Of a DNA stretch of 64,000 nt, positions 3,920 through 52,087 are shown in pieces. Numbering within the stretch: the stretch's first letter is position 1; the number at the start of each line of letters is the position of its first letter. Under the pieces are notes generated by a model. That model was not told where the DNA came from and did no database searches. It was given only the letters and a program-made list of their open reading frames with translations. Origin of the DNA: an uncultured Acidobacteriota bacterium (GTDB taxonomy: Bacteria; Acidobacteriota; Polarisedimenticolia; J045); assembly GCA_963702425.1 (NCBI GenBank), contig CAVPCQ010000032.1, forward strand, positions 96,001 to 160,000. Direction: 5' to 3'. The position numbers and the translations under genes were made by a program.

Positions 3920-4070
3920 CGACGAGCTACTGCGCCGAGTTTTCGCTCTGGACGCCCTCCGCTGCCCGCGCTGCTCGTCCCGCATGGAGGTCCTGGCCCG
4001 GCTCCACCCGCCCGATACGGCCCGCGCGATCCTCGACTGCCTCGGGCTCGCCGCCCGTGCCCCGCCCCGC
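3920..4070 (+). pseudogene. IS91/ISCR-type transposase C-terminal fragment (Zn-ribbon)
   Basis: Translates as ELLRRVFALDALRCPRCSSRMEVLARLHPPDTARAILDCLGL, typical of the IS91-like transposase C-terminus; the rest of the gene is absent. Confidence 0.7.
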
Positions 4071-5341
4071 TACAGTCCCGCCGTCCCCGGGTTGAGCCGC
4101 GCGCGATCCATGAGCTCCACCAGGTAGCTGCGCGCCAGCCGCGCGTTCAGCGCCGCCTTGTCCATCACGTCCACCCGGTCCGCCGGCTCCGATGCCAGGG
4201 GCCCCGGTAAGCGCCGAACCACCGGGATGTAGTCCCCCGGGTAGTCGAGCAGGCGCAGGATGTCGACCACCGAGGCGCGCTGCAGGTCGGCGATGCGGAG
4301 TGGCTGCCGCAGCATGGCTTCGCCGAACCATCGCCGCAGCAGGTCCGCCGTGACGTCCACCTTGGCCTGCATCTCGCTCTGCGGGAACGGCATCCCGAAG
4401 GCCCCCTGCCAGAGCTGCAGGATGTCCTGGATCTCCGGGTCGAGCAGGGTGAACGCGAGCGGGCGCTGGCGCAGCTGCGCCTCGAACGCCGCGAGGGCAG
4501 GGACCATCGGCCGGATGGTCGACAGGATGGTCCCGGTGGACACCTGGCCGACGAAGCGCTCACTGCGCGGCCCCGGCGCGGCCCCGCGGGAGTCCACGAT
4601 GAGGATGCGGCGAACGCCCGTGAATCGCTCGGCGAGCGCCGCGATCAGGAAGAGCCGCGTTGACCACCAGGTCGTCGCGAGGTCGATCTTGAGGGCACGC
4701 TGCGTGTCCCCGGCCTCGGTGATGGCCCGCTGGATGCCAAACGAGGCACTGCTGTCGCCGGCCACGCCGGTCGCCGCGTCGAGCGTCGTGGCGGGCTGCA
4801 GGTCCAGCTGGTTGGTGAGCCCCGTCATCGTGATCGCCGCACTCACGCGCGCCTCGAGGTCCGACGGCGTCGTAAACCATGCCACCACGCGCTCCTGTTG
4901 CAGCGCGGTCCGGAGCGTGCGGATCCTCGTCGTATCCGGCTCGCTGCCCACCAGCCCCCGGTCGAACCCGTCAACCAGGCGCGGCGACCAGGGATAGCCC
5001 TCCTCCAGGAGGAAGGCGAGGATCGGGAGCTTCCGGTCCTTCGCCTTGAGGTACTCGTAGTGCGTGATCGAGGTACCGCCCGCTACGGCGCCCGGCACGG
5101 CAGGTGCCGGAGACACGCCCGGGGCCGCGGCCGGCGGCACGTAGCCGTAGCGCCAGGCGAAGATCCCGACGTATGCCTCCGCGCGATCCACCATTTCCAG
5201 CACCTTGGAGAGCGGGGCGGTGGCGCCGGCGGTCATGTCCTCCATGGCGAGGACCTCGTGGCCGAGCTGCCGCAGGATGCGGATGGCGGCGGCGCGGTGC
5301 TCCTGCAGGTCGACAAACGACGATGAGACGAAGACGCGCAT
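4070..5341 (-). CDS. DUF4062 domain protein
   Basis: MRVFVSSSFVDLQEHR...YVGIFAWRYG...SITHYEYLKA...PILAFL; C-terminal half uncharacterised (WWSTRLFL motif). Confidence 0.85.
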   Translation of the reverse strand: MRVFVSSSFVDLQEHRAAAIRILRQLGHEVLAMEDMTAGATAPLSKVLEMVDRAEAYVGIFAWRYGYVPPAAAPGVSPAPAVPGAVAGGTSITHYEYLKAKDRKLPILAFLLEEGYPWSPRLVDGFDRGLVGSEPDTTRIRTLRTALQQERVVAWFTTPSDLEARVSAAITMTGLTNQLDLQPATTLDAATGVAGDSSASFGIQRAITEAGDTQRALKIDLATTWWSTRLFLIAALAERFTGVRRILIVDSRGAAPGPRSERFVGQVSTGTILSTIRPMVPALAAFEAQLRQRPLAFTLLDPEIQDILQLWQGAFGMPFPQSEMQAKVDVTADLLRRWFGEAMLRQPLRIADLQRASVVDILRLLDYPGDYIPVVRRLPGPLASEPADRVDVMDKAALNARLARSYLVELMDRARLNPGTAGL

Positions 5342-5564
5342 GGTCGATTCCTCGCGAGGGGCTGCCTCGAAGCTAGCACGGGTGGGGGCGAGCGGACACT
5401 GGATGATCCCCGCGCCCGTTCTTGACGGCCTCAAACGAATGCGCGCGACGCCTGAAAGCTATCCGACCCTCCCGGCATCTCCTGATGTGCCTCACCAGGC
5501 TCGGCAGCGCTGGCCTCGGCGCATGTTCGCTTGCCCAACCGCGTTCCGGGAGTCCTGACGCGGC

Positions 5565-6350
5565 CTACATCGCCACCTTGAGCCTCGACAAGTCCGCCCG
5601 CGAGATGAACCCCGCGGCCGCACCGAACCAGATCATCCGCGTCTGCCGGTCGTAGACCATGTGCCGCACCGTGTTCCGGTCGCCGGGAATCTCCGTCACG
5701 TTGAAGAACGCCTGCGTCTTCGGGTCGAACCCCACCAGGCGGTTCGGGCGCGCCGGGTTCGCCTCGGCGACCCACACCCGGTCGCGCTCGTCGATCGTCA
5801 TCCCGTACGGCAGCGAGTTCGCCCCGCCGGGGAGCGCCCACTCGTCCACCTTCCCCGTGGCGGGGTCCGGCCGGCCGAGATAGCCGCGCGTGTAGTCGGT
5901 GTAGCAGAGCTTGTCGTCAGAGGAGATCGCGATGCGGCGGTCGCACGTGCGCTCGTTCCCTAACGGGTACGTCGTGAGCTTGAGCCTCGCGGGGTCGAGG
6001 GTCCCGATGGTATTCGTGCCGAAGAGGTCGAACCACGGGTGCCCCTTCGAGTCCATCGCGATGCCATAGCGGCGCGAGCCGGGCTGCGGCATCTTCACGG
6101 GACGGAACTGCTTCGTCGTGACGTCGAGGTGCCCCGCCACGTTCTAGTTCTGGGCGGTGAACCAGATGTTCCCCTGCTTGTCCCACACCATGGTATCCGG
6201 GTCGCGCACGCCATCGGGGATCTCGAAGCGCGTGACCTCGCCCGTGCGGGGATCCAGCCGGCCGGTGGTGCCGTTGGTGTTTCCCGGGTACGACACCATT
6301 CCCTTCGCGTCCACGACGTAGCTGTGGGGATGGGCGTTCTCGTCGCTGCC
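5565..6350 (-). pseudogene. Vgb (virginiamycin B lyase)-like beta-propeller, in-frame stop and 5' truncation
   Basis: Repeats such as GRLDPRTGEVTRF, GNIWFTAQN, YGIAMDSKGHPWF, YGMTIDERDRVW; in-frame TAG at 6144-6146; no intact N-terminus. Confidence 0.75.
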
Positions 6351-6399
6351 CTTCCCGCTTGAAGGTCCTGACGCTGTCCCCACAAATGGCGAATTCGAG

Positions 6400-6659
6400 T
6401 TCGAGGCCTCCCTGCCGCGGCCGCCGGCGTGTGGGCGCGCCGCTTTGGGGTCTCGGAGCGCCAGTCGCGCCGCTACGCCGAGCAGGCGCGCGACGGGGGC
6501 ACGCAGGCCGTCCCGCCGCCGAAGGTCGTCTTCACGGTCAAGCTGCCCGCCGACGCCGTGCGACGGGTCCGGCAGCGGGCGAGAAGTCGGCGGCAAGCGC
6601 TCAGCGCTCTCGTCGAGCAGGTTCTCGCGGACTTCTTGTCCGCGGATCCGGCTGGATGA
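6400..6659 (+). pseudogene. Small HTH/ribbon-helix-helix accessory ORF of the recombinase element
   Basis: ARRFGVSERQSRRY (HTH-like) and VFTVKLPADAVRRVR...LSALVEQVLADFL (RHH-like); start unclear. Confidence 0.55.
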
Positions 6660-6784
6660 CGTGGCGGCGGCTCGACGCGTCGCGATCGAGTACGTCTTCG
6701 ACCGGCTGGGCCGGCTGCGCCTCGCCGAGACTGACGAGCTTCTCGTTCCCGAGCGTCGCCGGAGGACCGACGGAGGACAGGATC

Positions 6785-7630
6785 ATGCCGTGTGCAGCGC
6801 TCTACGCACGAGTCTCGACGCTGGGTCAGAAGGAGGAGGAGACGATCGCCAGCCAGACCGCGGAGCTGAAGGAGCAGGCGCGGTCGGCGGGCCTGATCGT
6901 ACCGCCCGAGTGGGTGTTTGAAGACGCGGAGTGCTCGGGTTCCACGCTGATCCGGCCGGCGCTCGAACGGCTTCGCGATCTGGTCGTCCAGGAGCGCGTC
7001 GACGTGATTCTCTGTCACGCGCCGGACCGGCTGGCTCGGCGCTGCGCCTGCCAGGTGCTGCTGATGGAGGAGTTCGCGCGCACCGGGACCGAGGTCCGGT
7101 TCATCAAGGCGCCGCCGACCGCTACATCCGCAAGGGACCGGACAGCCCGGCGCGCTACGAGATCGTCGAACACGACGCACGGATCGTGCGGGAGTTGTTC
7201 CGGCGGTACGCGGAGGGACGGACCTCGCCGCGCGCATTGGGGCGGTGGCTGACCGAGCGTGCGATCCCGACGGGAGCGGGCAGGGCGTTCTGGGACCAAT
7301 CGACGGTGGCTCAGATCCTGCGCAATCCCGCCTGCCGCGGGTGTGTGGCCTTCGGCCGGAGGGCGCCGGTGGACGACCCGCCGCGGGTCACGCCTTCGCG
7401 CCGTCTGGCCGGTGCAAAGGCCGCGCGGCGCTTCGACGACATCCGGCGCTTCTCGGCTCGCCGCACGAAGGAGCCGTGCGAGGCGGCCGCCGGCACGTTG
7501 GTCCTCGAACGCCAGCGCGTCGTCCGACTCGTCGTCCGGGACGTCCTCGTGGACACCGACACCGTGGTCATTCGGCACACGATCCCCGGACTGGACTCGG
7601 GCGGACGACCCGTTTGCCGCTCGTGGGGAC
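6785..7630 (+). pseudogene. Large serine recombinase, frameshifted and internally deleted
   Basis: ALYARVST..QKEEETIASQ, RPALERLRD and PDRLAR; frame change near 7120 continues as ARIVRELFRRY, WDQSTVAQILRNP and ERQRVVRLVVRDV. Confidence 0.8.
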
Positions 7631-7633
7631 CCC

Positions 7634-7775
7634 GTGTTGGCCCAGATCCACCCGCCCGACACCGCCCGCGTGATCCTCGACTGCCTCGGGCTGGCCTCCC
7701 GTGCCCCGCCCCGCACGCCGGCCCGCGCCGAGCCGGACTCGCTCCCCTTTCCCGCCAACACCGCCGCGGACTGAA
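7634..7775 (+). pseudogene. Second IS91/ISCR transposase C-terminal fragment
   Basis: VLAQIHPPDTARVILDCLGLASRAPPR; the first ~80 bp are a direct repeat of 3990-4070. Confidence 0.65.
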
Positions 7776-8203
7776 CTCCTGGACGAACGCCCCGGCCCAC
7801 GCGGGTCCTGACCACCTGGAGGGTGGATCTCCGCCGCCATGGCGGCCCTCCGCGCGTCCCATCCGGGGCCGCTCTCGCCGCCGCGCAGCGCTCGACCACG
7901 CTCCATCCACGCGGCCGGCCGTTCCCGCCGCTGGCGGCGCACCGACTTCGGCTGGCGTGTCATGAACGCGGCACTCCAGCTGCGCTACCGGGAGTTCCCA
8001 GCCTCCTTCGCTGCGGCGGCTTGAATCTGCTGCCCACTTCTCTTCGGTATGCGGAGAAGTTACAAAGCAATGATTTATCTTCCGGCCGGGGGTGAGTTGC
8101 CCGGGAGGCTTGTCCGCGAAGTCTGCCACGTCCACCACGACGCGTATCGCCGGGCGAACCCCGCCTGTTCGGCGTACGCTCCCCCTCATGAAAGGGGAAA
8201 GAC

Positions 8204-9952
8204 ATGCAAACTCCCAAGGATGGTGGCAAGCCCAAGAATGGTGGAATGCCCGGCAGAAAAATCGAAGTGGGCTCCTTCCGCGGAAAGGAGGTGACGTTCC
8301 TCGCACGCCGGCTGGTGATCCAGCTGGCGGCGTCGGAGGATGAGAAGTTGCTCATGGAATCCGTGGCGACCCTGATGGCCAAGGCCAAGGGCGCACGCGT
8401 GATGCGCGGGCCGAGTGCCACAGGTCGGATCCTGGTCATGCTGCCGGAAGGCCAGAGCGTGATCGAATGGGCCGCACGCTTCTCCGACGAGCGCGCCGTC
8501 GCCTACGCCGAGCCGGACATGCTGGAGCGGCTCCAGATCGTGCCGAACGACACACTGTACTCGAGCCAGTGGAGTCCGGGGATGGTGAATGCGGAGCAAG
8601 CCTGGGACCTCGAGACCGGCAAGACCAATGTGATCATCGGGATCATCGACTCCGGGATCTCCATCACCGGCGGGGCACTGGACCATGACGACCTCAACAC
8701 GCCGGGGCGCTTCGTCCTGGGGACGGACTTCGTGGATGGGGGCACGCCTCGCGACCTGAACGGCCACGGCACACACGTGACGGGGATTGCGGCAGCGATG
8801 GGCGACAACGGCACTGGGATCGCGGGGATGAACTGGGGATCGCAAGTATACATCTGTCGGACGTTCGATGCGGGAGGGAACGGCAGCTCGGCGGACTTTG
8901 CCGACGCCGTCGAGGAGATCACGGATTTCGCCGTGGCCAACGGGCTGAAGGCAGTGATCAACTACAGCGGCGGCGGCGTGGACAACCAGACTAAACAAGA
9001 CGCCGCCACGTACGCGTCGAACAACGGGATGCTCCTGGTTGCGGCGACCGGCAACGACAACGGCGGACCGGTGATCTTCCCGGCCGCGTATTCGACCACG
9101 ATCACGGGAGTCATCGCGGTCGGATCGACGGATTCCAACGACACCGTCTCGGGATTCTCGAACGTTGGACCCGAGGTGACCGTGGTGGCGCCGGGCGGCG
9201 ACATCCTATCGACGACGCCAACCTACAACGTGACCCTCTCGGGCCCGCCGGCCAACCTCGCGCTCAACCACGGCAACCTGAGCGGAACTTCCATGGCGAC
9301 GCCCATGGTCACTGGGTTGGCGGCCTTGATGTGGAGCCGGCACCCCAGCCACACGAATCAGAAGGTCAAGCAGTGCCTGATCGACACGGCCGTCAAGCTG
9401 GGCTCGGGGAACTTCGACAACAGCTGGGGCTTCGGCCGAATCGACGCGTACGCCGCACTCAAGTGCGGAGACTGGATCATGCCCTCGAAGCTAATCCTCT
9501 GCAAGTCGAGGCTGGTCCTCTGCACGTCGAAGCTGAGCACTTGCAGGACGCAGCTGTCCGTCTGCAAGTCGAAGCTGACCATCTGCAGCTCGCAGCTGGT
9601 AATCTGCAAATCGCAGTTGACAGTCTGCAAGTCGCAACTGACGCTCTGCGGAAAGTCGCAGTTGGTTCTCTGCCCAACCAAGTCGTTCCTCGATGCCTGC
9701 CCGGTCAGGTCGGTCCTGGCGGCCTGCCCTTCAGCGGTGGACGCGTGCCCGTCGACGCCCGGAGGATGCGAGTTCGTCGACCCGAGAGAACTTCTGGTCG
9801 ACCCGCTCATCCGGATCGCGGGACTTGAGTACCGGCTTCAGGAGCTCAAGACGGAGCTGTGGTACGGTGCGGGCGCGGCCAAGGCGCCCGATGCCGGCGA
9901 CGACGACGGTTGGTTCGTCCTCGACGACGGTGGCAATATCCACCTCATCTAA
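8204..9952 (+). CDS. Subtilisin-family (S8) protease with I9-like prodomain, fused to a C-terminal Cys/Ser/Thr-rich repeat (putative RiPP core) and acidic tail
   Basis: Triad IIDSG, NGHGTHVTG, GTSMATP; prodomain ends YAEPD before the mature-like PND..Y..QW; no signal peptide; tail of 13 x [S/T]x4C. Confidence 0.92.
   Translation: MQTPKDGGKPKNGGMPGRKIEVGSFRGKEVTFLARRLVIQLAASEDEKLLMESVATLMAKAKGARVMRGPSATGRILVMLPEGQSVIEWAARFSDERAVAYAEPDMLERLQIVPNDTLYSSQWSPGMVNAEQAWDLETGKTNVIIGIIDSGISITGGALDHDDLNTPGRFVLGTDFVDGGTPRDLNGHGTHVTGIAAAMGDNGTGIAGMNWGSQVYICRTFDAGGNGSSADFADAVEEITDFAVANGLKAVINYSGGGVDNQTKQDAATYASNNGMLLVAATGNDNGGPVIFPAAYSTTITGVIAVGSTDSNDTVSGFSNVGPEVTVVAPGGDILSTTPTYNVTLSGPPANLALNHGNLSGTSMATPMVTGLAALMWSRHPSHTNQKVKQCLIDTAVKLGSGNFDNSWGFGRIDAYAALKCGDWIMPSKLILCKSRLVLCTSKLSTCRTQLSVCKSKLTICSSQLVICKSQLTVCKSQLTLCGKSQLVLCPTKSFLDACPVRSVLAACPSAVDACPSTPGGCEFVDPRELLVDPLIRIAGLEYRLQELKTELWYGAGAAKAPDAGDDDGWFVLDDGGNIHLI
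9485..9769 (+). repeat. Intragenic tandem repeat (21-27 nt units) encoding 13 [S/T]-x4-C units
   Basis: Units such as tgcaagtcgaggctggtcctc, tgcaagtcgaagctgaccatc and tgcaagtcgcaactgacgctc. Confidence 0.9.
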
Positions 9953-9973
9953 GTCAAGCAGGAGGACTGTGGT

Positions 9974-11005
9974 GTGAGTGAACTGGGACTGGCCCGGCGG
10001 GCTGCGCGATTCGTGATCACACGTGGGTTGATCTCGCACGAGGAGGTCCATCGCTACGGGATCCGAGCCCGGGACCTATCCCAGTCCAACGGCGTTGCGC
10101 TGGTCGAGTCCGGCAACGGACGAGGCTTCGTGGCGAAGGATATGAGGCCGACGCGCTCGGGGGACCAGGGTTCCCCCGAGCGCGAACTCGGCCTCTACCG
10201 GGCCATCTCGGGCCGGAAGGAGCTCGAGGCCTTCACGCCGCGGTTCCATGGGTACGACGACGGGGAACACATCCTGCTCATCGAGGGCCTTTCGTCGTCT
10301 CGGCGCCTCGATCAGCTCGGCGGCGGGCGAAGCGTGCTGGATCCTGAACTAGCGGGTCGGGTCGGCGCGGCCTTGGGTCTGTGGCACCTGCGTGCGGCGG
10401 CGCTGGACGGTCTGGATCGAGCCGTGATCTGGTTCCTCGGCATCGACGGCGAGAACCGCCTGGCCGTACTCGATGCTGATGCGCGTCTGCGCGAGCTCAC
10501 CCTGAAGATCCTCTCCGACCCAGAGTTGAAGAAGTGCCTGGTGCGCGTGCGTGCCCACTGGACGGACGAGACGGTGATCCACGGCGATGTGCGCTTCGCC
10601 AACGTCATGGTCTGTCCCGCACCGCAAGTCGTTCGCTTCATCGACTGGGAGACCAGCGGGATGGGCGATCCGGCCTGGGACGTGGCGGGCGGCGTCCAGG
10701 AGTATCTGAGCGTAGGGATCGCGGGCGGACATCCGCTGGAGAGTTCGCCGGCCGGAGATCCGGTGGAGGCGTTCCTCAGGCGCTACCGGGAGACGTCTCG
10801 CAGCTCGATGCCGTGGTCGCGCTTCGCGCCCTTCGTCGCGTGCCGCCTGATGATGCGGGCGCTGCAGCTGACGTTGTGGGATGGGGACGCACGGGAGGCG
10901 ACCGAGCAGCACCTGAAACTGGCCGCAGAGATCGGCACAAGGACGGAAAGTCCGTTCGAGCGCGTTCCGCAGGACGACCCGGCACTCCAGTCCACGGACC
11001 AATGA
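9974..11005 (+). CDS. APH-family phosphotransferase (LanK-like Ser/Thr kinase)
   Basis: FVAK, Brenner motif IHGDVRFANVM, FIDWE..GMGDPAWDVA; GTG start after a CAGGAGG RBS. Confidence 0.85.
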   Translation: MSELGLARRAARFVITRGLISHEEVHRYGIRARDLSQSNGVALVESGNGRGFVAKDMRPTRSGDQGSPERELGLYRAISGRKELEAFTPRFHGYDDGEHILLIEGLSSSRRLDQLGGGRSVLDPELAGRVGAALGLWHLRAAALDGLDRAVIWFLGIDGENRLAVLDADARLRELTLKILSDPELKKCLVRVRAHWTDETVIHGDVRFANVMVCPAPQVVRFIDWETSGMGDPAWDVAGGVQEYLSVGIAGGHPLESSPAGDPVEAFLRRYRETSRSSMPWSRFAPFVACRLMMRALQLTLWDGDAREATEQHLKLAAEIGTRTESPFERVPQDDPALQSTDQ

Positions 11006-11937
11006 TCAGCGCCATGCACGGCGATCTCCTCGAAGCGGCTGAGTGGTTGGTCGACCAAACCCTACGCCACGAGGCAGCGAACGAGGGTCCTGACGAGCTG
11101 GCGCTCAGGCTCTACGATTGGTACCTGAATACGTCGCCGCTGCCCAAGCCCACGGGTCCACTGCTCCCCTATGAGCTCAACCTGCCGGCTGCCGTGCGCG
11201 GTGCACACCATGAAACGCCCCGCTTCGAGGGCGGATGGAAGGCGCAGACCGCTTCATCGTGGGGGCGGGTGGTGGCGAACAAGGGAGACGAGACCCGAGT
11301 GCTCGAGCGCAGCGAGTATACGGTTCCCGGCCGACGTGGGTTGCGCGCCCAACACGGCGACGCTCTCCTCGTCTCCCGCTGCTGGGACTGGGTCGACGAG
11401 GAGACCGGATTCTGGCACTACAGGCGCGGGACCTGGCCTCCCCCCGGAGCGGACCGCCTCGTCCGGATCTATTGGAACTGTGTGCCTGCCGAGGCTCCGC
11501 GCGTCATTGCGCAGGTGTCCCTGGTTCTGGGCGCCGCGGCCGATGTCCCGTTCATGGTGAAGACCCCCGCGCGATCCGATCACAACGGACGCGCGGACGC
11601 CGTCGTGAGCTACCTGGGACCCGATGGGTATTCGAGATTCGAGTGCGAGCTCCGAGCGACCGCGGAGTCGCTCGCTGTGTGCCTGCGGCCGCAGACTCCG
11701 CGAATGACGCATCGGCTGGCCCCCGGAGTAGCCCTCACCGAAGGCAAACTGGGCGGAGACAGCTTCGGCGATGTGCGTTGCCGACTCTTGGCCGATACGT
11801 TTTGCGAGGCAAGCGCCGAGGCTCGCCGCTCGGTGCCGCAGCTTGTGGAGAGGATCGGTGCAGACTTCCGAGCGACGGGCCTGGACCCCGCACGCCCATA
11901 CCTCGAGCCAGGGCCGGTTCGTGACTACGACGGTTGA
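11002..11937 (+). CDS. HopA1-family phosphoSer/Thr lyase (LanY-like)
   Basis: VRIYWN, PFMVK, RADAVVSY, PRMTHRLAPGVALTE and SFGDVRCRLLA motifs; ATGA overlap with the kinase stop. Confidence 0.8.
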   Translation: MISAMHGDLLEAAEWLVDQTLRHEAANEGPDELALRLYDWYLNTSPLPKPTGPLLPYELNLPAAVRGAHHETPRFEGGWKAQTASSWGRVVANKGDETRVLERSEYTVPGRRGLRAQHGDALLVSRCWDWVDEETGFWHYRRGTWPPPGADRLVRIYWNCVPAEAPRVIAQVSLVLGAAADVPFMVKTPARSDHNGRADAVVSYLGPDGYSRFECELRATAESLAVCLRPQTPRMTHRLAPGVALTEGKLGGDSFGDVRCRLLADTFCEASAEARRSVPQLVERIGADFRATGLDPARPYLEPGPVRDYDG

Positions 11938-13408
11938 CTACCTGGCGCTCGCGGGCGGCATCGCGAATCGGCTGTGCGACGAGGCCATCCGCAGCCAGGG
12001 GCGCGCGACGTGGCTCGGCGACGAGAAGGAGAGTTTCGACGGAAGCTGGGAGGTCGTTTGCAAGACCGTCGACGGAGACCTGTACGGTGGCACGGCCGGA
12101 ATCGGCCTGTTCCTCGCCCGGATGGCCGCCGCGACGAAGGACCCTCGTTACCGCACCACAGCGCTCGAGGCCTTGGCCCACGCGACGGAGTGGACGCGGC
12201 GCACTCGATCCCTGGGCACGCTCTACGGCGGAGCGGCGGGCGTAGCAGCTGAGCTGGCGGAAGCCGGAAGGCTGCTCGATGAGCCGGGATTGACGGACGA
12301 GGCCTTTCGTGTCGCAGGCGAGAGCATCGACCACCCACCTCAGGGGGCGAACGACTTGATCTCCGGCCGGGCGGGGTCGATCGTCGCGCTTCTGCACCTC
12401 GCGCGGACGTTGCCCTTCGACGCCGCGTTGGAAGCAGCTCGCGAGCTCGGCGAGCAGATCGTGAAGGCCGCTGTGGGAACGCCATTCCCGGGCGCTGCCT
12501 GGCCATCGGACATCGGGCCGAACGAGCCTCCCCTGTGCGGACTCTCGCACGGTGCCTCGGGTATCGCCTGGGCCCTGGAGGAACTCGCGCTGATCACCGG
12601 AGAGCAACGCTACAGCCAGGTTGCTGCTTCCGCGGCCGCCTATGAACGGGCCTGGTACCAGCGGGAGGAGGGGAACTGGCCGGACCTCCGAGAGTTCACT
12701 CGCGCCAAGCTGGCGCGCGGCGAAGCCCCCGGCTTCCCGATGTTCTGGTGCCACGGTGCCGTCGGGATCGGTCTGGTGCGCCTGCGCCAATTCGAATTGA
12801 CCGGGGAGACGGTCTACGCCGTAGAGGCCGAAGCTGCCATGATGTCCGCCGAGAAACAGATCGCAGAGGTCTTCGAGGCACCGCGAGTCGACCTATCCCT
12901 GTGCCACGGTGTGGCTGGATTCGCTGAACTGTTCCTCGAGGGGGCTCGGGTCTTCGCACAACCGCTCTTGCGTGAGAAGGCGCTGTCCTGCGTCGACTTG
13001 GCGGCGCGCTGTGGGCAAGACGGGGCAGGGCCGTGGCCGTGCGGCATCCCCGACGGTGGCGAGAACCCCAGCCTCATGGTCGGGCTCGCGGGTATCGGGA
13101 TGATGTTCCTCAGAGCGGCCGATTCCAGCGTGCCTTCGGTGGGCCTGCCCTATACTCTACCGATCATGATTCCCCGATTGATCGTCCAGCTCAAAGTCAC
13201 CGAATCGCCGGCCGACCTGCAGGCTCGCGCAGCCGAGGTCGCCGCACTTCTGCCCGGCAGCCGCATAGAACGGATCTCTCGGCGCGGGCGCGTCCTCATT
13301 CGCCTACCCGCGGGTGCATCCGCAGAGTCTGCGGCACGATCGCTTTCCGGCCGCCAGGGAGTGGAGTACGCCGAACCCGACGCCGTGGACCACCAGACTG
13401 GCGAGTAG
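11921..13408 (+). CDS. LanC-type lanthionine cyclase with C-terminal subtilisin-prodomain-like domain
   Basis: LYGGTAGI, DLISGRAG, GLSHGASG, WCHG and LCHG (Zn ligands), LMVGLAGIG; GTG start overlaps the upstream gene; extra ~80 aa domain ending YAEPD. Confidence 0.9.
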   Translation: MTTTVDYLALAGGIANRLCDEAIRSQGRATWLGDEKESFDGSWEVVCKTVDGDLYGGTAGIGLFLARMAAATKDPRYRTTALEALAHATEWTRRTRSLGTLYGGAAGVAAELAEAGRLLDEPGLTDEAFRVAGESIDHPPQGANDLISGRAGSIVALLHLARTLPFDAALEAARELGEQIVKAAVGTPFPGAAWPSDIGPNEPPLCGLSHGASGIAWALEELALITGEQRYSQVAASAAAYERAWYQREEGNWPDLREFTRAKLARGEAPGFPMFWCHGAVGIGLVRLRQFELTGETVYAVEAEAAMMSAEKQIAEVFEAPRVDLSLCHGVAGFAELFLEGARVFAQPLLREKALSCVDLAARCGQDGAGPWPCGIPDGGENPSLMVGLAGIGMMFLRAADSSVPSVGLPYTLPIMIPRLIVQLKVTESPADLQARAAEVAALLPGSRIERISRRGRVLIRLPAGASAESAARSLSGRQGVEYAEPDAVDHQTGE

Positions 13409-13504
13409 GGTTTCGAAGGCGTTGTTGGCTAGATGCATCAAAGAGGCAGGAGTGTGCCTGGCCACTACCCCGTCCGCCTTGCCCTTCAACGAGTTGCGTT
13501 CCGA

Positions 13505-13906
13505 TGCAGGAGATCCGGATCGCCATCATTCAGCCCGCAACCGTCATTCGCTGGCATCGCAAAGGTTTCAGACGGTACTGGCACTGGAAGTCGCGGCGCC
13601 ACGCTGGACGCCCGACCTCAACGGCCAATACCCGCGCTCTCGTCCACCTCATGGCGGCCGAGAATCCGTCGCGGGGCGCGCCGCGATCTCCTCGACCACG
13701 TCATCGTCCTCAACGAGAAGCACCTGCAGCGCCTTGTGGCCTGCTTCGCCTCGTACGGCCTCGACAACCGGACGCACTTGTCCCTGAAGAGGGATGCGCC
13801 CGCGATGCGAGCCGTGGAGTCGAGCCCGCATCCAGCCGCCGAGATCATCGCTCGACCTCGCCTCGGCGGGCTTCATCATCGCTACGCTTGGCGCCGCGCG
13901 GCTTGA
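13505..13906 (+). pseudogene. Integrase-core (IS3/IS481-like) transposase relic with large internal deletion
   Basis: IIQPATVIRWHRKGFR..W..KS..GRP...MAAENP..GAPR joined out of frame to LLDHVIVLNEKHL...RTHLSL..DAP...PRLGGLHHRY. Confidence 0.78.
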
Positions 13907-14368
13907 CGATTCCGCTCGACCCGTCCACCGCCGCGGCCTCGTCGTGGAGCGGCTGTGCCTTTGTGGAAGGCAGACCGTCGCCATCTCTGTCAACCGATGG
14001 GCATGACCGTCCCCGACACACGTAGGGGCGCGTTCGGCCGGCGTGTTTGCCTGCCATTCCAAGCCGCGTGAGCCATCAGCAATGCGCCTGCTCGATATTG
14101 GCGAAGAACAGGTGGCTCGGGAGCTGGCGGGCTGGACTTCCAGCGGCTCTTCGGGTGCGGCCCCTTCGTGGCCGGCCTCTGCGAGCGAGCGCGGCGGGGA
14201 GCGGCGGCACGGCTCCATGCCCCCCGGACTCCGCCTGCCGGCGCGAGGCCGATCCGAGAGGCGCCGGAGGCGGTCTCCGGGCGTTGCCAGGAAGAGCGGC
14301 GCTGGAGTAGTCTCGCGCCGTTCGCAACAGGCGATCCGCGCCGTGCGCGGTCGCGCGGAGGACTCGAG

Positions 14369-30279: not shown

Positions 30280-31920
30280 TCACGACGGCGGCCGCAACCG
30301 CAGCGGCGTCACGTAGCGCAGGGGCAGCCTGCGCGCCTTCAGCCAGTCGAGAACCTCTTCCTGCGGCCGCGGCGAGGCGAAGATCCAGAAGCGGTCCTCG
30401 CCGACGTCGGGAACCTCGACGCAGTAGACCAGGATGCCGTCCCTGGCCCACGGCATGACGGGCTGCGGAACCTGCGGCGGCAGGAAGGGCCGCCGGAAGA
30501 AGAAGTCGTTGTAGATGTCCGCGAACATCACCCGACGCGCGACGATGTCCTCCCAGCTCGCGCGGCGCCGGTGATAGAGCACCTGGTCGCGATCGAACGG
30601 CCGGCTGGCAATCTCGGGATCGTTCAGTCCCCAGACGTCGAGATGCCACGCTCCGCTGACGTAGGGAAGCGCACCGGCCCAGCCGATCGCGATCCGGTCT
30701 GCGGGCGAAAGATAGCGCGCCAGCGCACGCCCCTGGCGGAGCATCTCGTCGGCCTGGGCTTTCATGTTGCCGGTCGAAGCGACCGCGCCGAAGCCGCGGA
30801 ACGGGCGCACCAGCGTGGCGGCCTGCGAGGCGACGAGCGCCGCGGCGAGGACCACGGCGAGCGCCGTGCGACGACGCGGGACACGAGCCGCGAGCGCGTC
30901 GATCCCGGCGACGGAGAGCAGGGCCAGTGCCGGGAGCAGCGGCACGAAGAAACGGAACTCCCACGCGTCCCCGCCGACCGCGACGACCCACGCCGTCAGC
31001 GCCAGCGCCTGCGCCGCGAGCGCCGCTGCCAGCGGCCGGCGACGCGCGGTGCCGATCACGCCCACGACCGCCAGGGGAAGCCAGAGCCAGGCGTGGGTCT
31101 GGAGCAGGAACTGGCCGAGATAGCGCGCTCCCTCGTCGAGCTGCAGACCGCCGACCTTGGCGTAGAAGGTGTTCGGGAGCGGGCGCCCGAAGTAGGCGAC
31201 GCGGAAGAGCACGAGCCCCGCCAGCAGCACGGCGTGGCTCGCGCCCGACACCGCGACGACGCGCCACGCGTCGCGCGAGCGTCGGACCGTCGCGAGACCC
31301 AGACCCGCCGCCAGGTGCATCAGCGGCATCTCGGGACGCAGCAGGGTCGCAACGAAGAAGAGCAGCCCACTGACCCAGGGCCGGCGGCCGGTCCCGCTCC
31401 CATCTCCCACCTCGCGGGCCATCCGGATCGTCGCCGCGAGGGCGACGACCGTGGCCGCGGTGGTCTCCATCGCCGAAACGCCCCAGACGACCCACTGGCG
31501 CCCCAGCGCCAGCGACAGCGCCGCGGCGACGGCGAGCCAGGCTGGCAGCCCGAGGTCTCGCTCCCCGGTGCGCGTCACCAGCCACAACCCGGCGAGAGCG
31601 GCGACCAGCCCCGCGAGCTGCGAGACGACGAGGGGGTCGAGTCCCGCGGCGATCGCGCCGGCGTTCATCAGCATCCAGCCGGGCGAAGTGCTCCCCTCCA
31701 CCCGGACCGGTTCGACCGTGTTCCAGACGATCCCGTGCCCGGCCGCGACGTTGGATGCGTAGCGCAGCGTGATGAAGGTGTCGTCGTTGTACCAGCGCCT
31801 CGGCCAGGCGACCGCCACGAGCAGGATGAGCACGGCGACGAGCGCGAACACCGCCGGCAGCCGGCGCCCTCTGGGGGAGGACGCCGAACTCGGCACCGAG
31901 GAGGAGGACGGGGCGCTCAT
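30280..31920 (-). CDS. Multi-TM GT-C-like glycosyltransferase (AftB-like), copy 1
   Basis: DDTFITLRYASN..AGHGIVWN....VEGSTSPGW, METT, LRPE, FR..YFG.PLPNTFYAK, GGD...RFFVP. Confidence 0.78.
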   Translation of the reverse strand: MSAPSSSSVPSSASSPRGRRLPAVFALVAVLILLVAVAWPRRWYNDDTFITLRYASNVAAGHGIVWNTVEPVRVEGSTSPGWMLMNAGAIAAGLDPLVVSQLAGLVAALAGLWLVTRTGERDLGLPAWLAVAAALSLALGRQWVVWGVSAMETTAATVVALAATIRMAREVGDGSGTGRRPWVSGLLFFVATLLRPEMPLMHLAAGLGLATVRRSRDAWRVVAVSGASHAVLLAGLVLFRVAYFGRPLPNTFYAKVGGLQLDEGARYLGQFLLQTHAWLWLPLAVVGVIGTARRRPLAAALAAQALALTAWVVAVGGDAWEFRFFVPLLPALALLSVAGIDALAARVPRRRTALAVVLAAALVASQAATLVRPFRGFGAVASTGNMKAQADEMLRQGRALARYLSPADRIAIGWAGALPYVSGAWHLDVWGLNDPEIASRPFDRDQVLYHRRRASWEDIVARRVMFADIYNDFFFRRPFLPPQVPQPVMPWARDGILVYCVEVPDVGEDRFWIFASPRPQEEVLDWLKARRLPLRYVTPLRLRPPS

Positions 31921-31970
31921 CGCGGATTCGTGACGGAGCGGGCGGGCATTCGGCGACGCACCGGACCGGG

Positions 31971-32318
31971 TCAGGACCCGGACCTCAGCCTGGCCGTATA
32001 GCCCAGCTTCTCGATCGCGGCCGTGATCGTCTCGGGCTTCACCTTGGCCGCGTCGTAGCGCACCACGGCCTTCTTCTCCGTGTGCGAAGCCTCGACGGTC
32101 TCGACTCCATCGATCGCGCCGACGGTGGACTGGATCGCCTGCTCGCAGTGACCGCAGGTCATCCCTTCGACGTCGAACACGGACTCCTTCACAACTGGAC
32201 CCTCCGGGCTCGCGCCGGCGACGCCGGCGGATCGATCCTGGCCGCCGCACCCGGCGGCCACGAGGAGGGCGACGATCAGGCTCGCCACGGCGAAAGTGCG
32301 GACAGGAAAGCTGGACAT
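31971..32318 (-). CDS. Heavy-metal-associated (HMA) domain lipoprotein, copy 1
   Basis: Lipobox-like AAGC; GMTCGHC; AIEKLGY. Confidence 0.85.
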   Translation of the reverse strand: MSSFPVRTFAVASLIVALLVAAGCGGQDRSAGVAGASPEGPVVKESVFDVEGMTCGHCEQAIQSTVGAIDGVETVEASHTEKKAVVRYDAAKVKPETITAAIEKLGYTARLRSGS

Positions 32319-32483
32319 CGAGCACTCCTCGGACGGGAGGCTAGCACCGCGGACCGGCACTGCCCACCGGATCGCCAGGAACAGTGGCCTCCGGTACCGT
32401 CGCGCGGTATAAGCCGAGGTCCGGGCCCCCCTTCCTGAAGTCCGATACCGTCCGCGGTCGGCCCGAACCGCTCGAGGTCACGC

Positions 32484-35400
32484 ATGCCGTCGTCCCGCAT
32501 CCTGCTCGCCACGCTGCTCGGCGTGGCCGTCGCTCCCGCCGCGCTCGCGATCGAATCGCCCACTGCCGGATCGCTCGCCGGGAAGACGGTCCGGCCGCCG
32601 TTCGTGACCGAGCGCACGATCGACGTCGCCGACGCCGAGGCCGGGAGCCCCGGCGCGGCCGGCACGCCGGTCGCGCCCTTCCGCGCGTTCGCGGTTGCGT
32701 CGGGCGGAGCGTGGACGGGGCGGCTGGTGGCGGGCAGCGGCCGCGCGGCGGCCCTGTCCGGCAGCGGACTGCCGCTCGTGCCGGGCGCCGGCAACGGCCT
32801 GGCCGGAGGCGATCCGCGCGACCTCTCGCTGCTCGAGCGGCGGGTGCGCGAGCTGCTCGCGGCCCACCCCGGCCTGCTCGCGCCCGCCTTCGGCGAGCTG
32901 GTCCTCTCGCCCCAGCGTTCGGCGGTGATCGACGACGGTCGGGTCGCGTTCGTCGACTTCGACTGGACGATCGGCGGAGTGCCGGTCGAGGGCGCGGGGG
33001 TGTTCGCACGCCTGAATGCGGGCAACGTGATCCAGCTCGGCACGCGCCTCCTGTCCGGCACGGCCGACGCTCCGGTCGCGCTGCTCGACGCCGCCGACGC
33101 GCGGCGGCGCCTCGGCGACTACGTCCGCGGGGGCGAGTCCGGCGACGGCGACGGGGAACTCGACCGGCAGCACGGCGAGCCGCGCCTGTTCTTCCTGCCG
33201 GTCGAGGAGGGCGCGGGCCTGCGCTACCGGCTCGTCTGGGAGGTCGCCTTCCGCCGCGCCGGCGAGCAGGCGACCTGGACCGGCCGCGTCGACGCCCACG
33301 ACGGCTCGATCGTGCAGTTCTTCGATGCCAACGCCTATGGCGAGGTGACCGGCGGCGTCTACCCGCGGACCGTGGTCGACCCCGAGGCAGTCGTACCGAT
33401 TCCGTTCGTGCAGGTCGACGGCGCGGGCGTGACCAGCGCCGCCGGCCGCTTCCCCTTCAACGGCGCGAAGGTCTCGACCGGCCTCGACGGCCGCTACTTC
33501 TCGACGAGCTGCGAGAACTGCTCGGCGCCGGCCCAGGCCTACGGCGAAACCACGCTCGGCCTGGGCTGGCTGAAGCTCGGCACCGGCGGGACCGACCAAC
33601 TGGCCAACGGGGTCTCGACGCGGGCCGAACGCAACAGCTTCTTCCACCTCAACGAGGCCCGGCTGGTCGCGAAGAAGTGGCTCAACCTGCCCTGGTTCGA
33701 CCAGACGGTGCAGTCCAACGTCAACATCGCCAGCACCTGCAACGCCTACTGGAACGGGACCGTCAACTTCTACCGTTCGGGCGGCGGCTGCAACAACACC
33801 GGCGAGATCGCCGACGTGATGCAGCACGAGTGGGGCCACGGCATCGACCAGAACACGCTGCTGGGCGACTCGGCGACCGGTGAGGGGACCGGTGACCACG
33901 TCGCCTTCCTGATGACGCACGGCTCGGTGATCGGGCCGTACTTCCGCACCAGCGGCGGCGGCGTGCGCGACGTCAACCGGCTGACCTCATCGACCGGACT
34001 GATCACGCGCGGCAACGCCGCCTCCAAGTGCCCCTCGGCCGGCTTCGGCTGCGGCGGACCGCTCGGCCTCGAGTGCCACTGCGAGGGCGAGATCTACGGG
34101 CAGACCGGCTGGGACCTGGCGCAGAGCCTGGTCGCCAAGCACGGCTATCACACCGGCTGGCTGACCTACGAGCGGATCTTCTTCGCTTCGCTGCCGCAGT
34201 CCGGCCCCTACCTGCCCAATCAGGCGAACTCGATCTACGACGCCTACCTCGCGGTGGACGACGACGACGGCAACCTCGCCAACGGCACGCCCAACGCGAA
34301 GCAGATCTACGACGCCTTCAACCTGCACGAGATCGCCGGGACGCAGCGCGCGACAACCGCCGGCTGCGCGCGGCCCGCGGAGCCGACGGTCTCGATCGCC
34401 ACCGGCTGCAACGGCGTCACGCTGAGCTGGCCGGCGGTGAGCGGCGCCACGAAGTATCGCCTGATGAAGACGATGTTCTCGCCCAACCGCGCCTTCCTGC
34501 CGCTGACGGAAGTCACCGGGACGAGCTTCGCCGACGGCGAGGTGCGCCCCGGCACGACCTACTACTACGTCGTCCAGGCGCTCACCGGTTCGGGCTGCGG
34601 CTCGACGATCGAGCAGGTCGTGTCGACGACCGGTCCGGCGCGGCCGGTCGCCGGGATCGTCTCCGTCACGACCGACGACACGCCGCGGGGGAACCGCTCC
34701 GGCACGGTCGACCCGGGCGAAGCGGTGGACATCTTCCTGACGCTGGGGAACGCGGCGCCGACGGCGGGGTCCGGCCTGGTCGGAACGATCGCCTCGAGCG
34801 CCGCCGGCGTGACGATCGACGTCGCGACGCAGCCCTTCGCCGACCTGCCTGGGAACGGGACGACCGTCAACGCGGTCGGCTTCCGGGCCTCGATCGCTTC
34901 GTCGGTCGCCTGCGGCACCTCGCTCCCCTTCACCTTCACCGTCACCGACGGCTCCGGGTGTACCGTGGACACGCAGTACTTCGCGCTGAAGACGGGCGGC
35001 GACGTGCTGCGGCGCTCGGACGGCTTCTCCGCCGACTCGGGCTGGGCCTTCGATCCGGCGACGTCGACCGCGTCGAGCGGTGCCTGGACGCGCGGCACGC
35101 CGGACGCGACGCCGTGGCAATCGGGCTCCGACTCCGACGACGCCGGCGACGGGTGCTGGTTCACGGCGCCGAACTTCAACGGCGATTCGGGAGACGACGT
35201 GGACGGCGGCGAGGTCGTGCTGCTGTCACCGGTCTTCAGCCTGGCCGGGCTCTCCGGCGCCGACCTCGCCTACCAGCGCTGGTGGGCCAGCTCCGCGCCG
35301 GGCGCAGACGCCAACGACTGGTACTGGGTCGAGGTCAGCAACAACGGCGGCTCGACCTGGCAGACGGTCGAGAAGCTCGGCAGCGGCCAGGCGGCCGCAG

Positions 35401-36819
35401 CCTGGGCGCGGGCCCGCTTCGACCTCGACGCGATCCTGCCGCTGACGGCGACCATGCGCCTGCGCGTGCGGGTCTCCGACGGCGTCGCCGCCGCCGGCAC
35501 GGTGGAAGGAGCCTTCGACGACTTCCGCGTCACCGAACCGACCTGCGACGCCACGCCGCCGTGCTTCGTGAAGCCATCGTTCGCAGGCGCCGCGTCGGCG
35601 ACGGCCGGCCCGGACTGCGCGGAGACCTCGCTGGCCTGGTCGGCCGCCGCGAGCGGCTGCTCGAACGCGAGCGTGACCTACAACGTCTACCGCTCGACCG
35701 ACCCGGGCTTCGTCCCGTCCGACGCGACGCGTGTCGCGAGCGGGCTCGCCTCGCTCTCCCTCGTCGATCGCTACCTCGTGCCCGGCACCGGCTACTACTA
35801 CGTCGTCCGGGCGCTCGACTCGCGCTCGGGCGAGGAAGCCAACCTGGTCCGGCGCGCGGCAACCGCGCCGGCGGCACCCGACACCAGGCCGCCAACCTTC
35901 TCCGGGGTCGATGGCGTCGTCGCCGGCGCAGGCTGCGGCGAGGCGCAGCTGGTGTGGGGCGCGGCACGGGAGACCTGCTCCGGCCCGGTCGTCTACGAGG
36001 TCTACCGCTCGACGACCGCGGGCTTCACCCCGGCGCCGGCCAACCTCGTCGGCCGGACCACCGCGACGTCCCTGGTGGACGCCGGCCTCGCGCCGGCGAC
36101 GACCTACTACTACGTGGTCCGCGCTGCGGACCGGCAGGGGAACGCCGACGGGAACGTCAAGCGCCGCTCGGCGCAGGCGACCGTGCTCCCGGAGCTGCTC
36201 TCGTCCGAGACCTTCGAGTCGGGGGCCGCCGGCTGGGCGCGCGCGGGCACCAACGACGCCACGACCGGGCTCTGGGAGCTGGGCGATCCGACCCAGACCG
36301 ACGCGCAACCCGGCACCTGCCCCTCCGGAAGCAACTGCTGGGCCACCGGCCTCAACAACGCGAGCCTCGGCGACAACGACATCGACGGGGGAACGACCAC
36401 GCTGCTCTCCGCGCGCTTCAGCCTGGCGGGCGCGCAGTCGCCGGCGATCCGCTACAAGCGCTACTACTCCAACAACACCGGCGCCACGCCGGGGACCGAC
36501 TCCTGGACGGTCGACCTGTCGACCGACGATGGTGCGAGCTGGTCGCCGATCGAGAACACGAGCGCTCCGACGCGGGGATGGTCTTCTCCCAGGTCGAGTT
36601 CCCGCTCGGTGCGACGGGCCCCACGGCGAACATGCGCGTGCGGTTCGTGGCCTCCGACCTGCTCGACGGGTCGCTGGTCGAGGCGGTCGTCGACGACTTC
36701 GAGCTGGTCGACCTGACGGGCGGCTGCGACGGCTGCCCGGCCCCGCCGACGGTGGGCCGGATCCTCGCGCAGCGCGACGCGTCCGACGTGGTGCTCGACT
36801 GGACGACCGACCCGGTGAG
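32484..36819 (+). pseudogene. Secreted M4/M36-like metalloprotease with FN3 domains, copy 1 (frameshifted and truncated)
   Basis: Matches copy 2 until a 1-nt deletion near 36564 (agcgctccga vs agcgcctccga); cut at the duplication junction. Confidence 0.85.
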
Positions 36820-38479: not shown

Positions 38480-38529
38480 CGCGGATTCGTGACGGAGCGG
38501 GCGGGCATTCGGCGACGCACCGGACCGGG

Positions 38530-38877
38530 TCAGGACCCGGACCTCAGCCTGGCCGTATAGCCCAGCTTCTCGATCGCGGCCGTGATCGTCTCGGGCTTCA
38601 CCTTGGCCGCGTCGTAGCGCACCACGGCCTTCTTCTCCGTGTGCGAAGCCTCGACGGTCTCGACTCCATCGATCGCGCCGACGGTGGACTGGATCGCCTG
38701 CTCGCAGTGACCGCAGGTCATCCCTTCGACGTCGAACACGGACTCCTTCACAACTGGACCCTCCGGGCTCGCGCCGGCGACGCCGGCGGATCGATCCTGG
38801 CCGCCGCACCCGGCGGCCACGAGGAGGGCGACGATCAGGCTCGCCACGGCGAAAGTGCGGACAGGAAAGCTGGACAT
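38530..38877 (-). CDS. HMA domain lipoprotein, copy 2
   Basis: Duplicate of 31971-32318. Confidence 0.85.
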   Translation of the reverse strand: MSSFPVRTFAVASLIVALLVAAGCGGQDRSAGVAGASPEGPVVKESVFDVEGMTCGHCEQAIQSTVGAIDGVETVEASHTEKKAVVRYDAAKVKPETITAAIEKLGYTARLRSGS

Positions 38878-39042
38878 CGAGCACTCCTCGGACGGGAGGC
38901 TAGCACCGCGGACCGGCACTGCCCACCGGATCGCCAGGAACAGTGGCCTCCGGTACCGTCGCGCGGTATAAGCCGAGGTCCGGGCCCCCCTTCCTGAAGT
39001 CCGATACCGTCCGCGGTCGGCCCGAACCGCTCGAGGTCACGC

Positions 39043-51597: not shown

Positions 51598-51694
51598 GAC
51601 CCTCCCCACCCGGCGAGCCCGCGACCGGGCGCGAGCCGCAGGGTAGACCGCAACCTGCGGAGGATCAAACGCGCAGAGGGCGTGCGACGCCGGG

Positions 51695-52084
51695 TCAGGT
51701 GATGACCACCTCGTGCCCACCGTTCCCGTGCGGGCATGGTCCGGCGGCGATGAACTCCCCGAAGAACTCGATCGGCAGATACCCCAGGCCGCGCATCCCG
51801 GCGGGTATCCGCACCACGTTGTCCACCATCCAGGTCAGTCCGACGCCCGCGGTGAAGCTGCCCGTGATCGAGTGGACCAGGCCGTTGATGTCCCGCGTAC
51901 TGAACGAGAACGTGGTCGGGAGGGCGAGGTGCAGGCCGCAGACCTCGATGTCCAGTTGGCTGAAACTCGTGAGCGACTCGTAGTTCACGACGGTCTGCGG
52001 CGCGCACCAGACACCATCGACGCTCCACTGCGTGTCGACCGTGCCCCATCTCGCTTTGTCGATCCGGATCTTCGTCTTCGGCAT
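51695..52084 (-). CDS. Hypothetical protein
   Basis: 129-aa ORF, strong GGAGGTG RBS, 3 nt after the kinase stop. Confidence 0.65.
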   Translation of the reverse strand: MPKTKIRIDKARWGTVDTQWSVDGVWCAPQTVVNYESLTSFSQLDIEVCGLHLALPTTFSFSTRDINGLVHSITGSFTAGVGLTWMVDNVVRIPAGMRGLGYLPIEFFGEFIAAGPCPHGNGGHEVVIT

Positions 52085-52087
52085 GAT

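Follow-up and report, generated by a model that had tools for sequence, protein, structure and literature searches.

The 64,000-nucleotide stretch of a contig from an uncultured Acidobacteriota bacterium analyzed here (CAVPCQ010000032.1, positions 96,001 to 160,000; hereafter, the window) contains an operon of four genes (8204-13408) that appears to encode a lanthionine-forming module of the class Vb type whose substrate is not a short peptide but the C-terminal tail of a full-size subtilisin-like protease (subtilase). We put the probability of this reading, which derives from sequence comparison, at roughly 0.6. The original prediction had suggested that the tail is modified by the products of the three downstream genes, a kinase, a lyase and the cyclase LanC (hereafter, the enzyme triad). 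This suggestion is now supported by two comparative samples, one anchored on LanC and the other on the S8 protease, and by a copy of the protease prodomain that is attached to LanC. The tail, encoded directly ahead of the enzyme triad, is very probably its substrate.

The subtilase tail and the enzymes of the operon

The four genes lie on the forward strand and are closely coupled, with a 21-nucleotide gap, an ATGA overlap and a 17-nucleotide overlap at the successive joins; the order proposed originally, S8 protease, APH kinase, HopA1-family protein and LanC, with closely spaced or overlapping genes, is borne out by the coordinates and the Pfam matches. The first gene (8204-9952), which starts with an ATG preceded by a GGGGA-type ribosome-binding site, encodes the predicted substrate, a protein of 582 amino acids that matches Peptidase_S8 with an E value of 2.5e-48. 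The protein consists of its own N-terminal prodomain (residues 37-109, 8312-8530), which aligns with the C-terminus of LanC, the catalytic domain (residues 141-411, 8624-9436, the extent of the Pfam match), the repeat tail (residues 428-522, 9485-9769) and a 60-residue acidic/aromatic C-terminal module located 3' of the repeats (residues 523-582, 9770-9949). The catalytic residues D149, H188 and S363 and the oxyanion N284 are present and invariant in 11 aligned relatives, so that the protein has the S8 fold with the Asp-His-Ser triad expected of a LanP-type protease. The motif that ends the C-terminal module, of the W-F-Y-V-D-D-D-G-x-x-H-E-V type, is also kept in 11 aligned relatives. No hydrophobic signal peptide of the subtilase is visible by eye.

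The tail, originally noticed as a Cys/Ser/Thr-rich extension of about 95 residues, is indeed 95 amino acids long and contains 13 cysteines, each of which has a serine or threonine at position -5 (12 Ser, 1 Thr), compared with a frequency of about 0.19 per offset for Ser/Thr ahead of Cys in shuffled tails. The predicted lanthionine core is this array of 13 tandem Ser/Thr-x4-Cys units, which are spaced by one to three residues; the last four units diverge at other residues and still keep the distance between Ser/Thr and Cys. Part of the tail is underlain by a 21-nucleotide tandem repeat (7.2 copies, 9498-9649). A related strain, represented in a sediment metagenome run by contigs that are 95-99% alike, has one extra in-frame 21-nucleotide unit behind position 9630, which indicates that the array varies by whole units and stays coding. 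The tail is the only Ser/Thr/Cys-rich sequence in the operon. The lack of a small precursor open reading frame (ORF), also noted originally, was confirmed for the two flanks (7966-8203 and 13409-14071), where we found no credible candidate, just Arg-rich off-frame ORFs and a transposase remnant. With the tail as the query, a word-index search returned the window protein alone and an exhaustive HMMER search returned relatives; the ESM Atlas contained no usable match for it. As a structure for the tail, we also considered a coiled coil in which heptad positions a and d would be Leu and Cys, respectively, and set it aside in view of the Pro present in every unit of many relatives.

The second gene (9974-11005), with a GTG start codon and AGGAGG ahead of it, encodes a LanK-type kinase of the APH fold (343 amino acids) that scores 59.6 bits against Pfam APH (PF01636; cut-off 23.2, E value 5.2e-16) and contains the HGD (residue 203) and IDWE (residue 223) motifs. 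The product of the third gene (11002-11937), the ATG of which overlaps the kinase stop codon, is a LanY-type, HopA1-like phosphoSer/Thr lyase of 311 amino acids that scores 73.7 bits against Pfam HopA1 (PF17914; cut-off 22.7, E value 2.1e-20), covers profile positions 12-170 of 170 and is the sole HopA1-family match in its genome. The fourth gene (11921-13408) starts with a GTG located within the end of the HopA1-like gene and encodes a LanC cyclase of 495 amino acids with a C-terminal prodomain-like domain (LANC_like, E value 1.3e-51). The zinc-ligand motifs of LanC are intact, as originally stated: WCHG (residue 276), CHG (residue 328) and the histidine of SHGASG are present and invariant in 38 aligned relatives, with C277, C328, H329 and H210 as the ligand residues. 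The same LanC matches the class IV LanL model at an E value of 4.5e-38, under the cut-off of that model.

By these family matches, the enzyme set of the operon is that of the published class Vb lanthipeptide route. An APH-type kinase and a HopA1-type lyase, CaoK and CaoY, dehydrate Ser/Thr in vitro (PMC9486802; here and below, literature statements refer to passages of the cited articles), and the combination of LanK, LanY and a dedicated LanC, without LanD and LanX, is known as class Vb (PMC11186320, PMC12291118, PMC12328550), with mSmoA as its one characterized member as of 2024 (PMC11186320). A stand-alone LanK, a stand-alone LanY and a LanC with zinc ligands are all encoded in the operon, and the short precursor of class Vb, composed of a leader and a core, is not. 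Class Va, with LanD and LanX and no LanC, does not describe the operon, which has four family-assigned genes, no flavoprotein and no second APH, and in which LanC is present. The decarboxylase (LanD) and the methyltransferase are indeed missing, as the original prediction had it; their absence is not an oddity, however, because it is expected of the class Vb enzyme set.

Repeat tails and modification enzymes across genomes

The LanC-anchored sample was built from an alignment of 38 LanC relatives, with one genome per species, and comprises 80 loci (81 with L003) that, according to the record titles, come from Actinomycetota, Planctomycetota, Acidobacteriota, Pseudomonadota, Chloroflexota, Gemmatimonadota, Myxococcota and others. 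The ORFs in the comparison loci are six-frame stop-to-stop translations rather than gene calls, and some classes were assigned by eye. The full enzyme triad is present in 64 of the 81 loci, and its gene order is that of the window in 63 of these 64. When the upstream ORF was picked by length alone, at least 8 Cys were found among its last 150 amino acids in 37 of 60 loci, compared with a 95th percentile of 7 in a background of 2401 ORFs. A motif-guided choice of the upstream ORF, which is biased, gives 43 of 63 loci; the figure of 0.48 for Ser/Thr at position -5 in the other tails is likewise biased, by the picking of the ORFs with the most Ser/Thr-x4-Cys motifs.

The N-terminal parts of the Cys-repeat proteins are diverse. 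An S8 N-terminus was detected by BLAST in 20 loci, 9 of which contain the S8 subfamily of the window, at 50-56% full-length identity, and 11 contain other S8 subfamilies; mycosin-like S8 and trypsin-like forms were recognized by eye, and L012 was confirmed as S8-like. An N-terminal domain of about 110 amino acids precedes the Cys-rich repeats in 22 loci (4 served as model seeds). Pfam and NCBIfam contain no family for this domain or for the trypsin-like forms, and the ESM Atlas returned unnamed clusters only for the domain, which may be a protein-sized leader. Judging from the LanC-anchored loci, Cys-rich repeats close the gene ahead of the triad irrespective of the N-terminal domain that it encodes.

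The carriers of the domain of about 110 amino acids (for example, in L029, L037, L040, L042, L013, L020 and L023) would be non-protease substrates of the same triad. Their genes are sometimes present as two or three in tandem and are placed after LanC in L014, L061 and L065.

The second sample was obtained by scanning metagenomes with an S8 alignment, which yielded 80 loci, including 24 close relatives of the window subtilase whose ORF ends inside the contig. Eight of the 24 have a Cys tail; in all eight, the next gene encodes the kinase, with the lyase and LanC after it if the contig extends far enough. The tail of 13 others is of the (Phe-Thr-x)n type, and here the next gene encodes a GT2 glycosyltransferase in 13 of 13 cases and the kinase in none. 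The remaining three are of neither type: L104 has nothing, and L105 and L107 combine a truncated S8 ORF with GT2. Neither the Cys tail nor the triad was found in any of the 42 more distant S8 loci. Thus, co-occurrence of Cys-tailed S8 proteins with the triad in other genomes, the check proposed along with the original prediction through hidden Markov model (HMM) searches and neighborhood analysis, was found, and the contrary outcome, with the same tail common on S8 proteases that lack modification genes, was not seen.

The family is not small. Among the best 120 S8 relatives in the protein collection, at least 68 are of the Cys type and 48 of the Phe-Thr type, with 4 more that are borderline or truncated. 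The carriers of the Cys-tail S8 include cultured strains of Acrocarpospora, Sinosporangium and Nonomuraea. In a tree of 27 S8 catalytic domains (L087 was left out), the Cys-type proteases (13 rows) group as a single clade, with support of 92/94, within a grade of the Phe-Thr type.

In the sister-clade loci (L090, L092, L094, L095, L097-L103, L106 and L108; for example, L097:5986-8645), the tail comprises 14-20 triplet repeats of Phe-Thr/Ser, after which comes a C-terminal segment that is conserved. This tail is probably O-glycosylated by the adjoining GT2.

A prodomain copy on LanC and the proposed fate of the tail

The subtilase prodomain copy fused to LanC (13172-13405, residues 418-495) scores 33.7 bits against the Fervidolysin_NPro-like prodomain (PF22148; cut-off 21), and the last 73 residues of LanC align with subtilase residues 37-109 at 34% identity (E value 3e-10). 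The prodomain HMM matches the same N-terminal region in the relatives of the subtilase. In the window and in 10 loci (L004-L011, L016 and L019), the prodomain forms part of LanC; in L018 and L036, it is encoded by a separate small ORF directly 3' of LanC. Of 9 loci with a second S8 subfamily, 8 have a free-standing prodomain protein of about 75-80 amino acids, the gene of which lies after LanC in convergent orientation.

Free-standing prodomain-like ORFs include L050:11202-11528(-), L044:6488-6874(-) and L052:5532-5813(-), with others in L021, L022, L053, L062 and L080. Their products share an end motif of the Tyr-Ala-Glu-Pro-Asp type with the LanC tail and are candidate dedicated protease inhibitors.

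Prediction of a complex between the S8 catalytic domain and the LanC prodomain gave scores of 0.91, 0.91 and 0.90 in three runs, compared with 0.01 for the best of three controls; 58 of 80 solved complexes attain this mark, as do 2 of 110 mismatched pairs. Contact agreement among the runs is at least 98%, the predicted local distance difference test (pLDDT) value of the partner is at least 89, and LanC residues 485-495 are placed against the D149, H188 and S363 regions of the subtilase. The prodomain copy of LanC is thus predicted to dock into the active-site cleft of the protease.

From the gene content, motifs, spacing and co-occurrence described above, we infer the following scheme in each of its chemical steps, in the binding and in the fate of the tail. 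The LanK kinase would phosphorylate the Ser/Thr residue in every one of the 13 Ser/Thr-x4-Cys units, the LanY lyase would eliminate the phosphate to yield dehydroalanine or dehydrobutyrine, and the zinc-dependent LanC would add the Cys located five residues downstream (Ser/Thr(i)-Cys(i+5)), with up to 13 consecutive six-residue thioether rings as the outcome. LanC would find its substrate via its C-terminal copy of the subtilase prodomain, bound on the catalytic domain; the bound copy, the final residues of which are predicted to lie in the active-site cleft, would also keep the protease inactive. The stapled segment would stay on the protein as a rigid stalk, resistant to self-proteolysis, between the catalytic domain and the acidic module.

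Retention of the tail on the protease is the least certain step of this scheme. We lean toward it because a conserved module follows the repeats, the sister clade is built alike, and there is neither a conserved exporter nor a visible signal peptide. Gene clusters other than the triad and S8 recur in 12 of the LanC-anchored loci at most, and the two largest remaining clusters (12 and 10 loci) consist of kinase/TPR and BTAD/STAND-type proteins, not transporters. With neither a visible signal peptide nor a conserved transporter in the vicinity, the system is probably intracellular. At some loci (L010, L041, L061, L006-L009 and L028), the triad adjoins BTAD-nSTAND1-WD40 or Ser/Thr kinase-TPR proteins.

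Several results weigh against the proposal that the tail is a retained substrate of the triad. The predicted complex is similar to solved subtilisin-propeptide complexes, and its high score may come from that likeness; because such complexes have already been solved, the prediction shows likeness rather than binding by the LanC copy. The best NCBIfam match of the kinase is the class V LxmK model, at 47.7 bits, far under the cut-off of 315. AlphaFold2, run on an 11-row alignment, gave a mean pLDDT of 42.7, with about 20 for the tail and weak values for the catalytic domain too, which is too poor to judge disorder of the tail. In 23 of the 60 loci, the upstream ORF picked by length is not Cys-rich; some of these ORFs are in the wrong frame in high-GC DNA, and in other cases, the repeat protein is small or encoded elsewhere. 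Further, because the Cys-type S8 proteases form a single clade, the split between Cys and Phe-Thr tails in the close S8 family counts, by the tree, as one evolutionary switch, not as 21 independent events, and independent support for the pairing of the tail with the triad comes from the other N-terminal architectures. The last two contrary observations, a classical cluster in L079 and the appearance of the repeats in several other loci, concern retention and bring in the most viable of the alternatives.

Under this alternative, which we regard as possible although on balance doubtful, the system produces a self-processing peptide that is made by the ribosome and modified after translation (RiPP): the tail is modified, and then the fused subtilase, as a built-in LanP, cuts it off, whole or ring by ring, so that one or more free lanthipeptides are the product and the protease serves as leader and maturase. 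The catalytic triad of the subtilase is intact, and S8 proteases are the usual lanthipeptide leader peptidases (PMC10885120). The L079 locus (a Roseivivax lentus record) encodes a separate precursor of about 480 amino acids with repeated modules of an Ala-rich spacer and Thr-Cys, the triad and, after LanC, a separate tail-less S8 (L079:5905-7479 and L079:11211-12854), which is the classical cluster layout. The combination of a separate precursor with a tail-less protease in a homologous cluster, named originally as a finding that would contradict the fusion, was thus encountered once and keeps self-release alive. Short, near-identical repeat units in L028/L069, L078 and L064 also look like those of multi-core precursors. 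Yet, the acidic module that follows the repeats is conserved in 11 of 11 aligned relatives, the one to three residues between the predicted rings leave little room for a protease, and the module has no conserved transporter beside it and no signal peptide that can be seen by eye. The sister clade, in which a different repeat tail is combined with a glycosyltransferase and a further C-terminal domain, suggests a modified linker rather than a released product.

It is improbable that the tail is a structural or metal-binding domain, held by disulfides or thiolates, and that the triad acts on some other substrate, for example, a small peptide, or adds glutathione to another protein. Cys-rich repeats are capable of metal binding and of forming disulfide ladders, and the tail search matched unrelated Cys-heptad proteins of eukaryote-like composition (P0125, P0130, P0133 and P0136), which means that such repeats exist without lanthionine enzymes. 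However, the tail type matches the downstream enzyme type without exception in the S8-anchored loci (8/8 and 13/13), Ser/Thr at position -5 is kept where the other residues of the units differ, and a repeat protein comes ahead of the triad even where the N-terminal domains are unrelated. Furthermore, no small precursor ORF was found in the operon flanks, and the probable cytoplasmic location disfavors disulfides. Least probable is a triad that only dehydrates the tail or links molecules to each other, making it an electrophilic or polymerizing appendage for covalent multimers or thiol capture: LanK and LanY alone do yield dehydrated products (PMC9486802, PMC11186320) and dehydroamino acids are reactive electrophiles, but the fixed five-residue distance from Ser/Thr to Cys in 13 of 13 units fits intramolecular closure and has no obvious intermolecular meaning, and a LanC with intact zinc ligands is conserved in the operon.

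Genomic setting and relation to known systems

Upstream of the operon, on the same strand, is an ORF with a serine-recombinase 'Recombinase' domain (6931-7965, Pfam PF07508, E value 1e-11), and downstream, also on the forward strand, is a transposase/integrase-like remnant spread over two frames (13433-13906), which was recognized in translations read by eye and had no match in the family scan. The G+C content of the first 2 kb of the module is 0.63, below that of the flanks, and searches with the HopA1-like protein as the query found no match in 4 same-genus and 22 same-family genomes. The four-gene module looks like an acquired island. A promoter and terminator scan of the stretch gave no signal exceeding shuffles, and PADLOC reported a generic subtilase match only, with no link to a known defense system.

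Just upstream of the island, the reverse strand encodes a protein with TIR and FGE-sulfatase domains (1313-2593) and a DUF4062 protein (4070-5434), and several large Ser/Thr kinase-TPR proteins are encoded at 48811-56470; with these genes, the neighborhood in the window is of the conflict or signaling type. Between the DUF4062 gene and the recombinase ORF, a Vgb_lyase/SGL-like beta-propeller gene (5565-6782, reverse strand) is broken by a single in-frame TAG (6144-6146) and is probably a pseudogene or the result of a sequencing error. Farther downstream, one gene pair is present in two tandem copies (30280-36716 and 36839-43554), each of which encodes a 687-amino-acid protein of no family on the reverse strand and an fn3-containing protein of about 1430-1520 amino acids on the forward strand.

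A broader and quite tentative scenario is that these are self-substrate cytoplasmic proteases with repeat stalks built by adjoining enzymes, through lanthionine formation in one clade and glycosylation in its sister. The prodomain plug on the cyclase might then be a checkpoint that blocks the active site and lets an active protease go only when 13 rings are closed, and the stapled protease might be the effector of a mobile, intracellular conflict or differentiation system. Under this scenario, no earlier case would be known of a full-size enzyme fitted with multiple lanthionine rings.

Comparison with known lanthionine systems places the window next to class Vb, for which the passages found describe the same three stand-alone families (PF01636, PF17914 and LanC) and no LanD, LanX or methyltransferase. 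The mSmoA lanthipeptide of this class is said to be made by SmoK, SmoY and SmoC, in work attributed to Pei et al. in J Am Chem Soc in 2022 (doi 10.1021/jacs.2c06808). In the passages that describe it, mSmoA is a short peptide with two overlapping rings and one more, whereas the predicted substrate in the window is a 582-amino-acid protease with 13 tandem, non-overlapping units; unlike the class Vb LanC as described in the PMC passages, that of the window carries the prodomain copy. Class Va (cacaoidin, lexapeptide, pristinin and triantimycins) has dehydration by LanK and LanY in common with the window but, according to the passages of PMC12291118, employs LanD and LanX, forms a C-terminal aminovinyl-methylcysteine (AviMeCys) and has no LanC, whereas the window operon lacks LanD, LanX and AviMeCys. 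The class IV LanL enzymes follow the same logic of lyase, kinase and zinc-dependent LanC; however, LanL is a single polypeptide whose lyase domain is of the OspF type, in contrast to the three proteins and the HopA1-type lyase of the window. LanP-type subtilases, such as NisP, are likewise S8 proteases in lanthionine clusters, but they are not known to carry a core peptide, whereas the window subtilase carries the predicted core. Subtilisin propeptides have the prodomain fold and bind the catalytic domain, and the LanC copy, which matches PF22148, is predicted to do likewise; no other cyclase with such a prodomain is known to us.

Borosins have their core joined to the enzyme that modifies it. 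They and RiPPs with protein-like leaders of the NHLP/Nif11 type share with the window a core that has a folded domain of protein size as its fusion partner or leader; unlike in borosins, the protease to which the window core is fused is not the modifying enzyme. Work on protein-like leader peptides is cited in PMC12537861. CrpA and CrpC of Methanococcus voltae (PMC13692751) resemble the proposed system in that a Cys-rich protein encoded beside a RiPP-type enzyme is the substrate; the enzyme there is a radical-SAM protein that makes ranthionine links, and the passages found describe no dehydration route, LanC or protease fusion. The same 2026 article, in the part found, treats validated thioether links on large proteins as limited in number (PMC13692751).

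The original statement that no described system has this architecture holds insofar as the literature searched contains no description of a protease-fused lanthionine core or of a prodomain-bearing LanC, in a search that covered neither the genome-mining section nor the supplements of the primary class Vb paper; likewise, the passages found of a 2023 review of RiPP proteases mention no precursor-protease fusion (PMC10885120). The architecture is no one-off, however, considering that at least 68 of the best 120 S8 relatives have the Cys tail. As far as the literature searches show, the whole-protease substrate, the prodomain-bearing cyclase and the paired sister clade are new, and the chemistry itself is of a known kind.

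Short secreted peptides are the setting in which lanthionine rings are known. If the proposed reading is correct, lanthionine chemistry would here staple, with up to 13 rings, a 95-residue segment that belongs to a complete enzyme. The cyclase would recognize its substrate not by a leader peptide but by a prodomain borrowed from a protease, which would be a new mode of substrate recognition. The family is large enough for study, and the sister clade, with its glycosyltransferase and Phe-Thr repeats, provides a built-in comparison. RiPP-type chemistry would then extend to proteins, and the tail would be a natural scaffold of tandem, protease-resistant rings.

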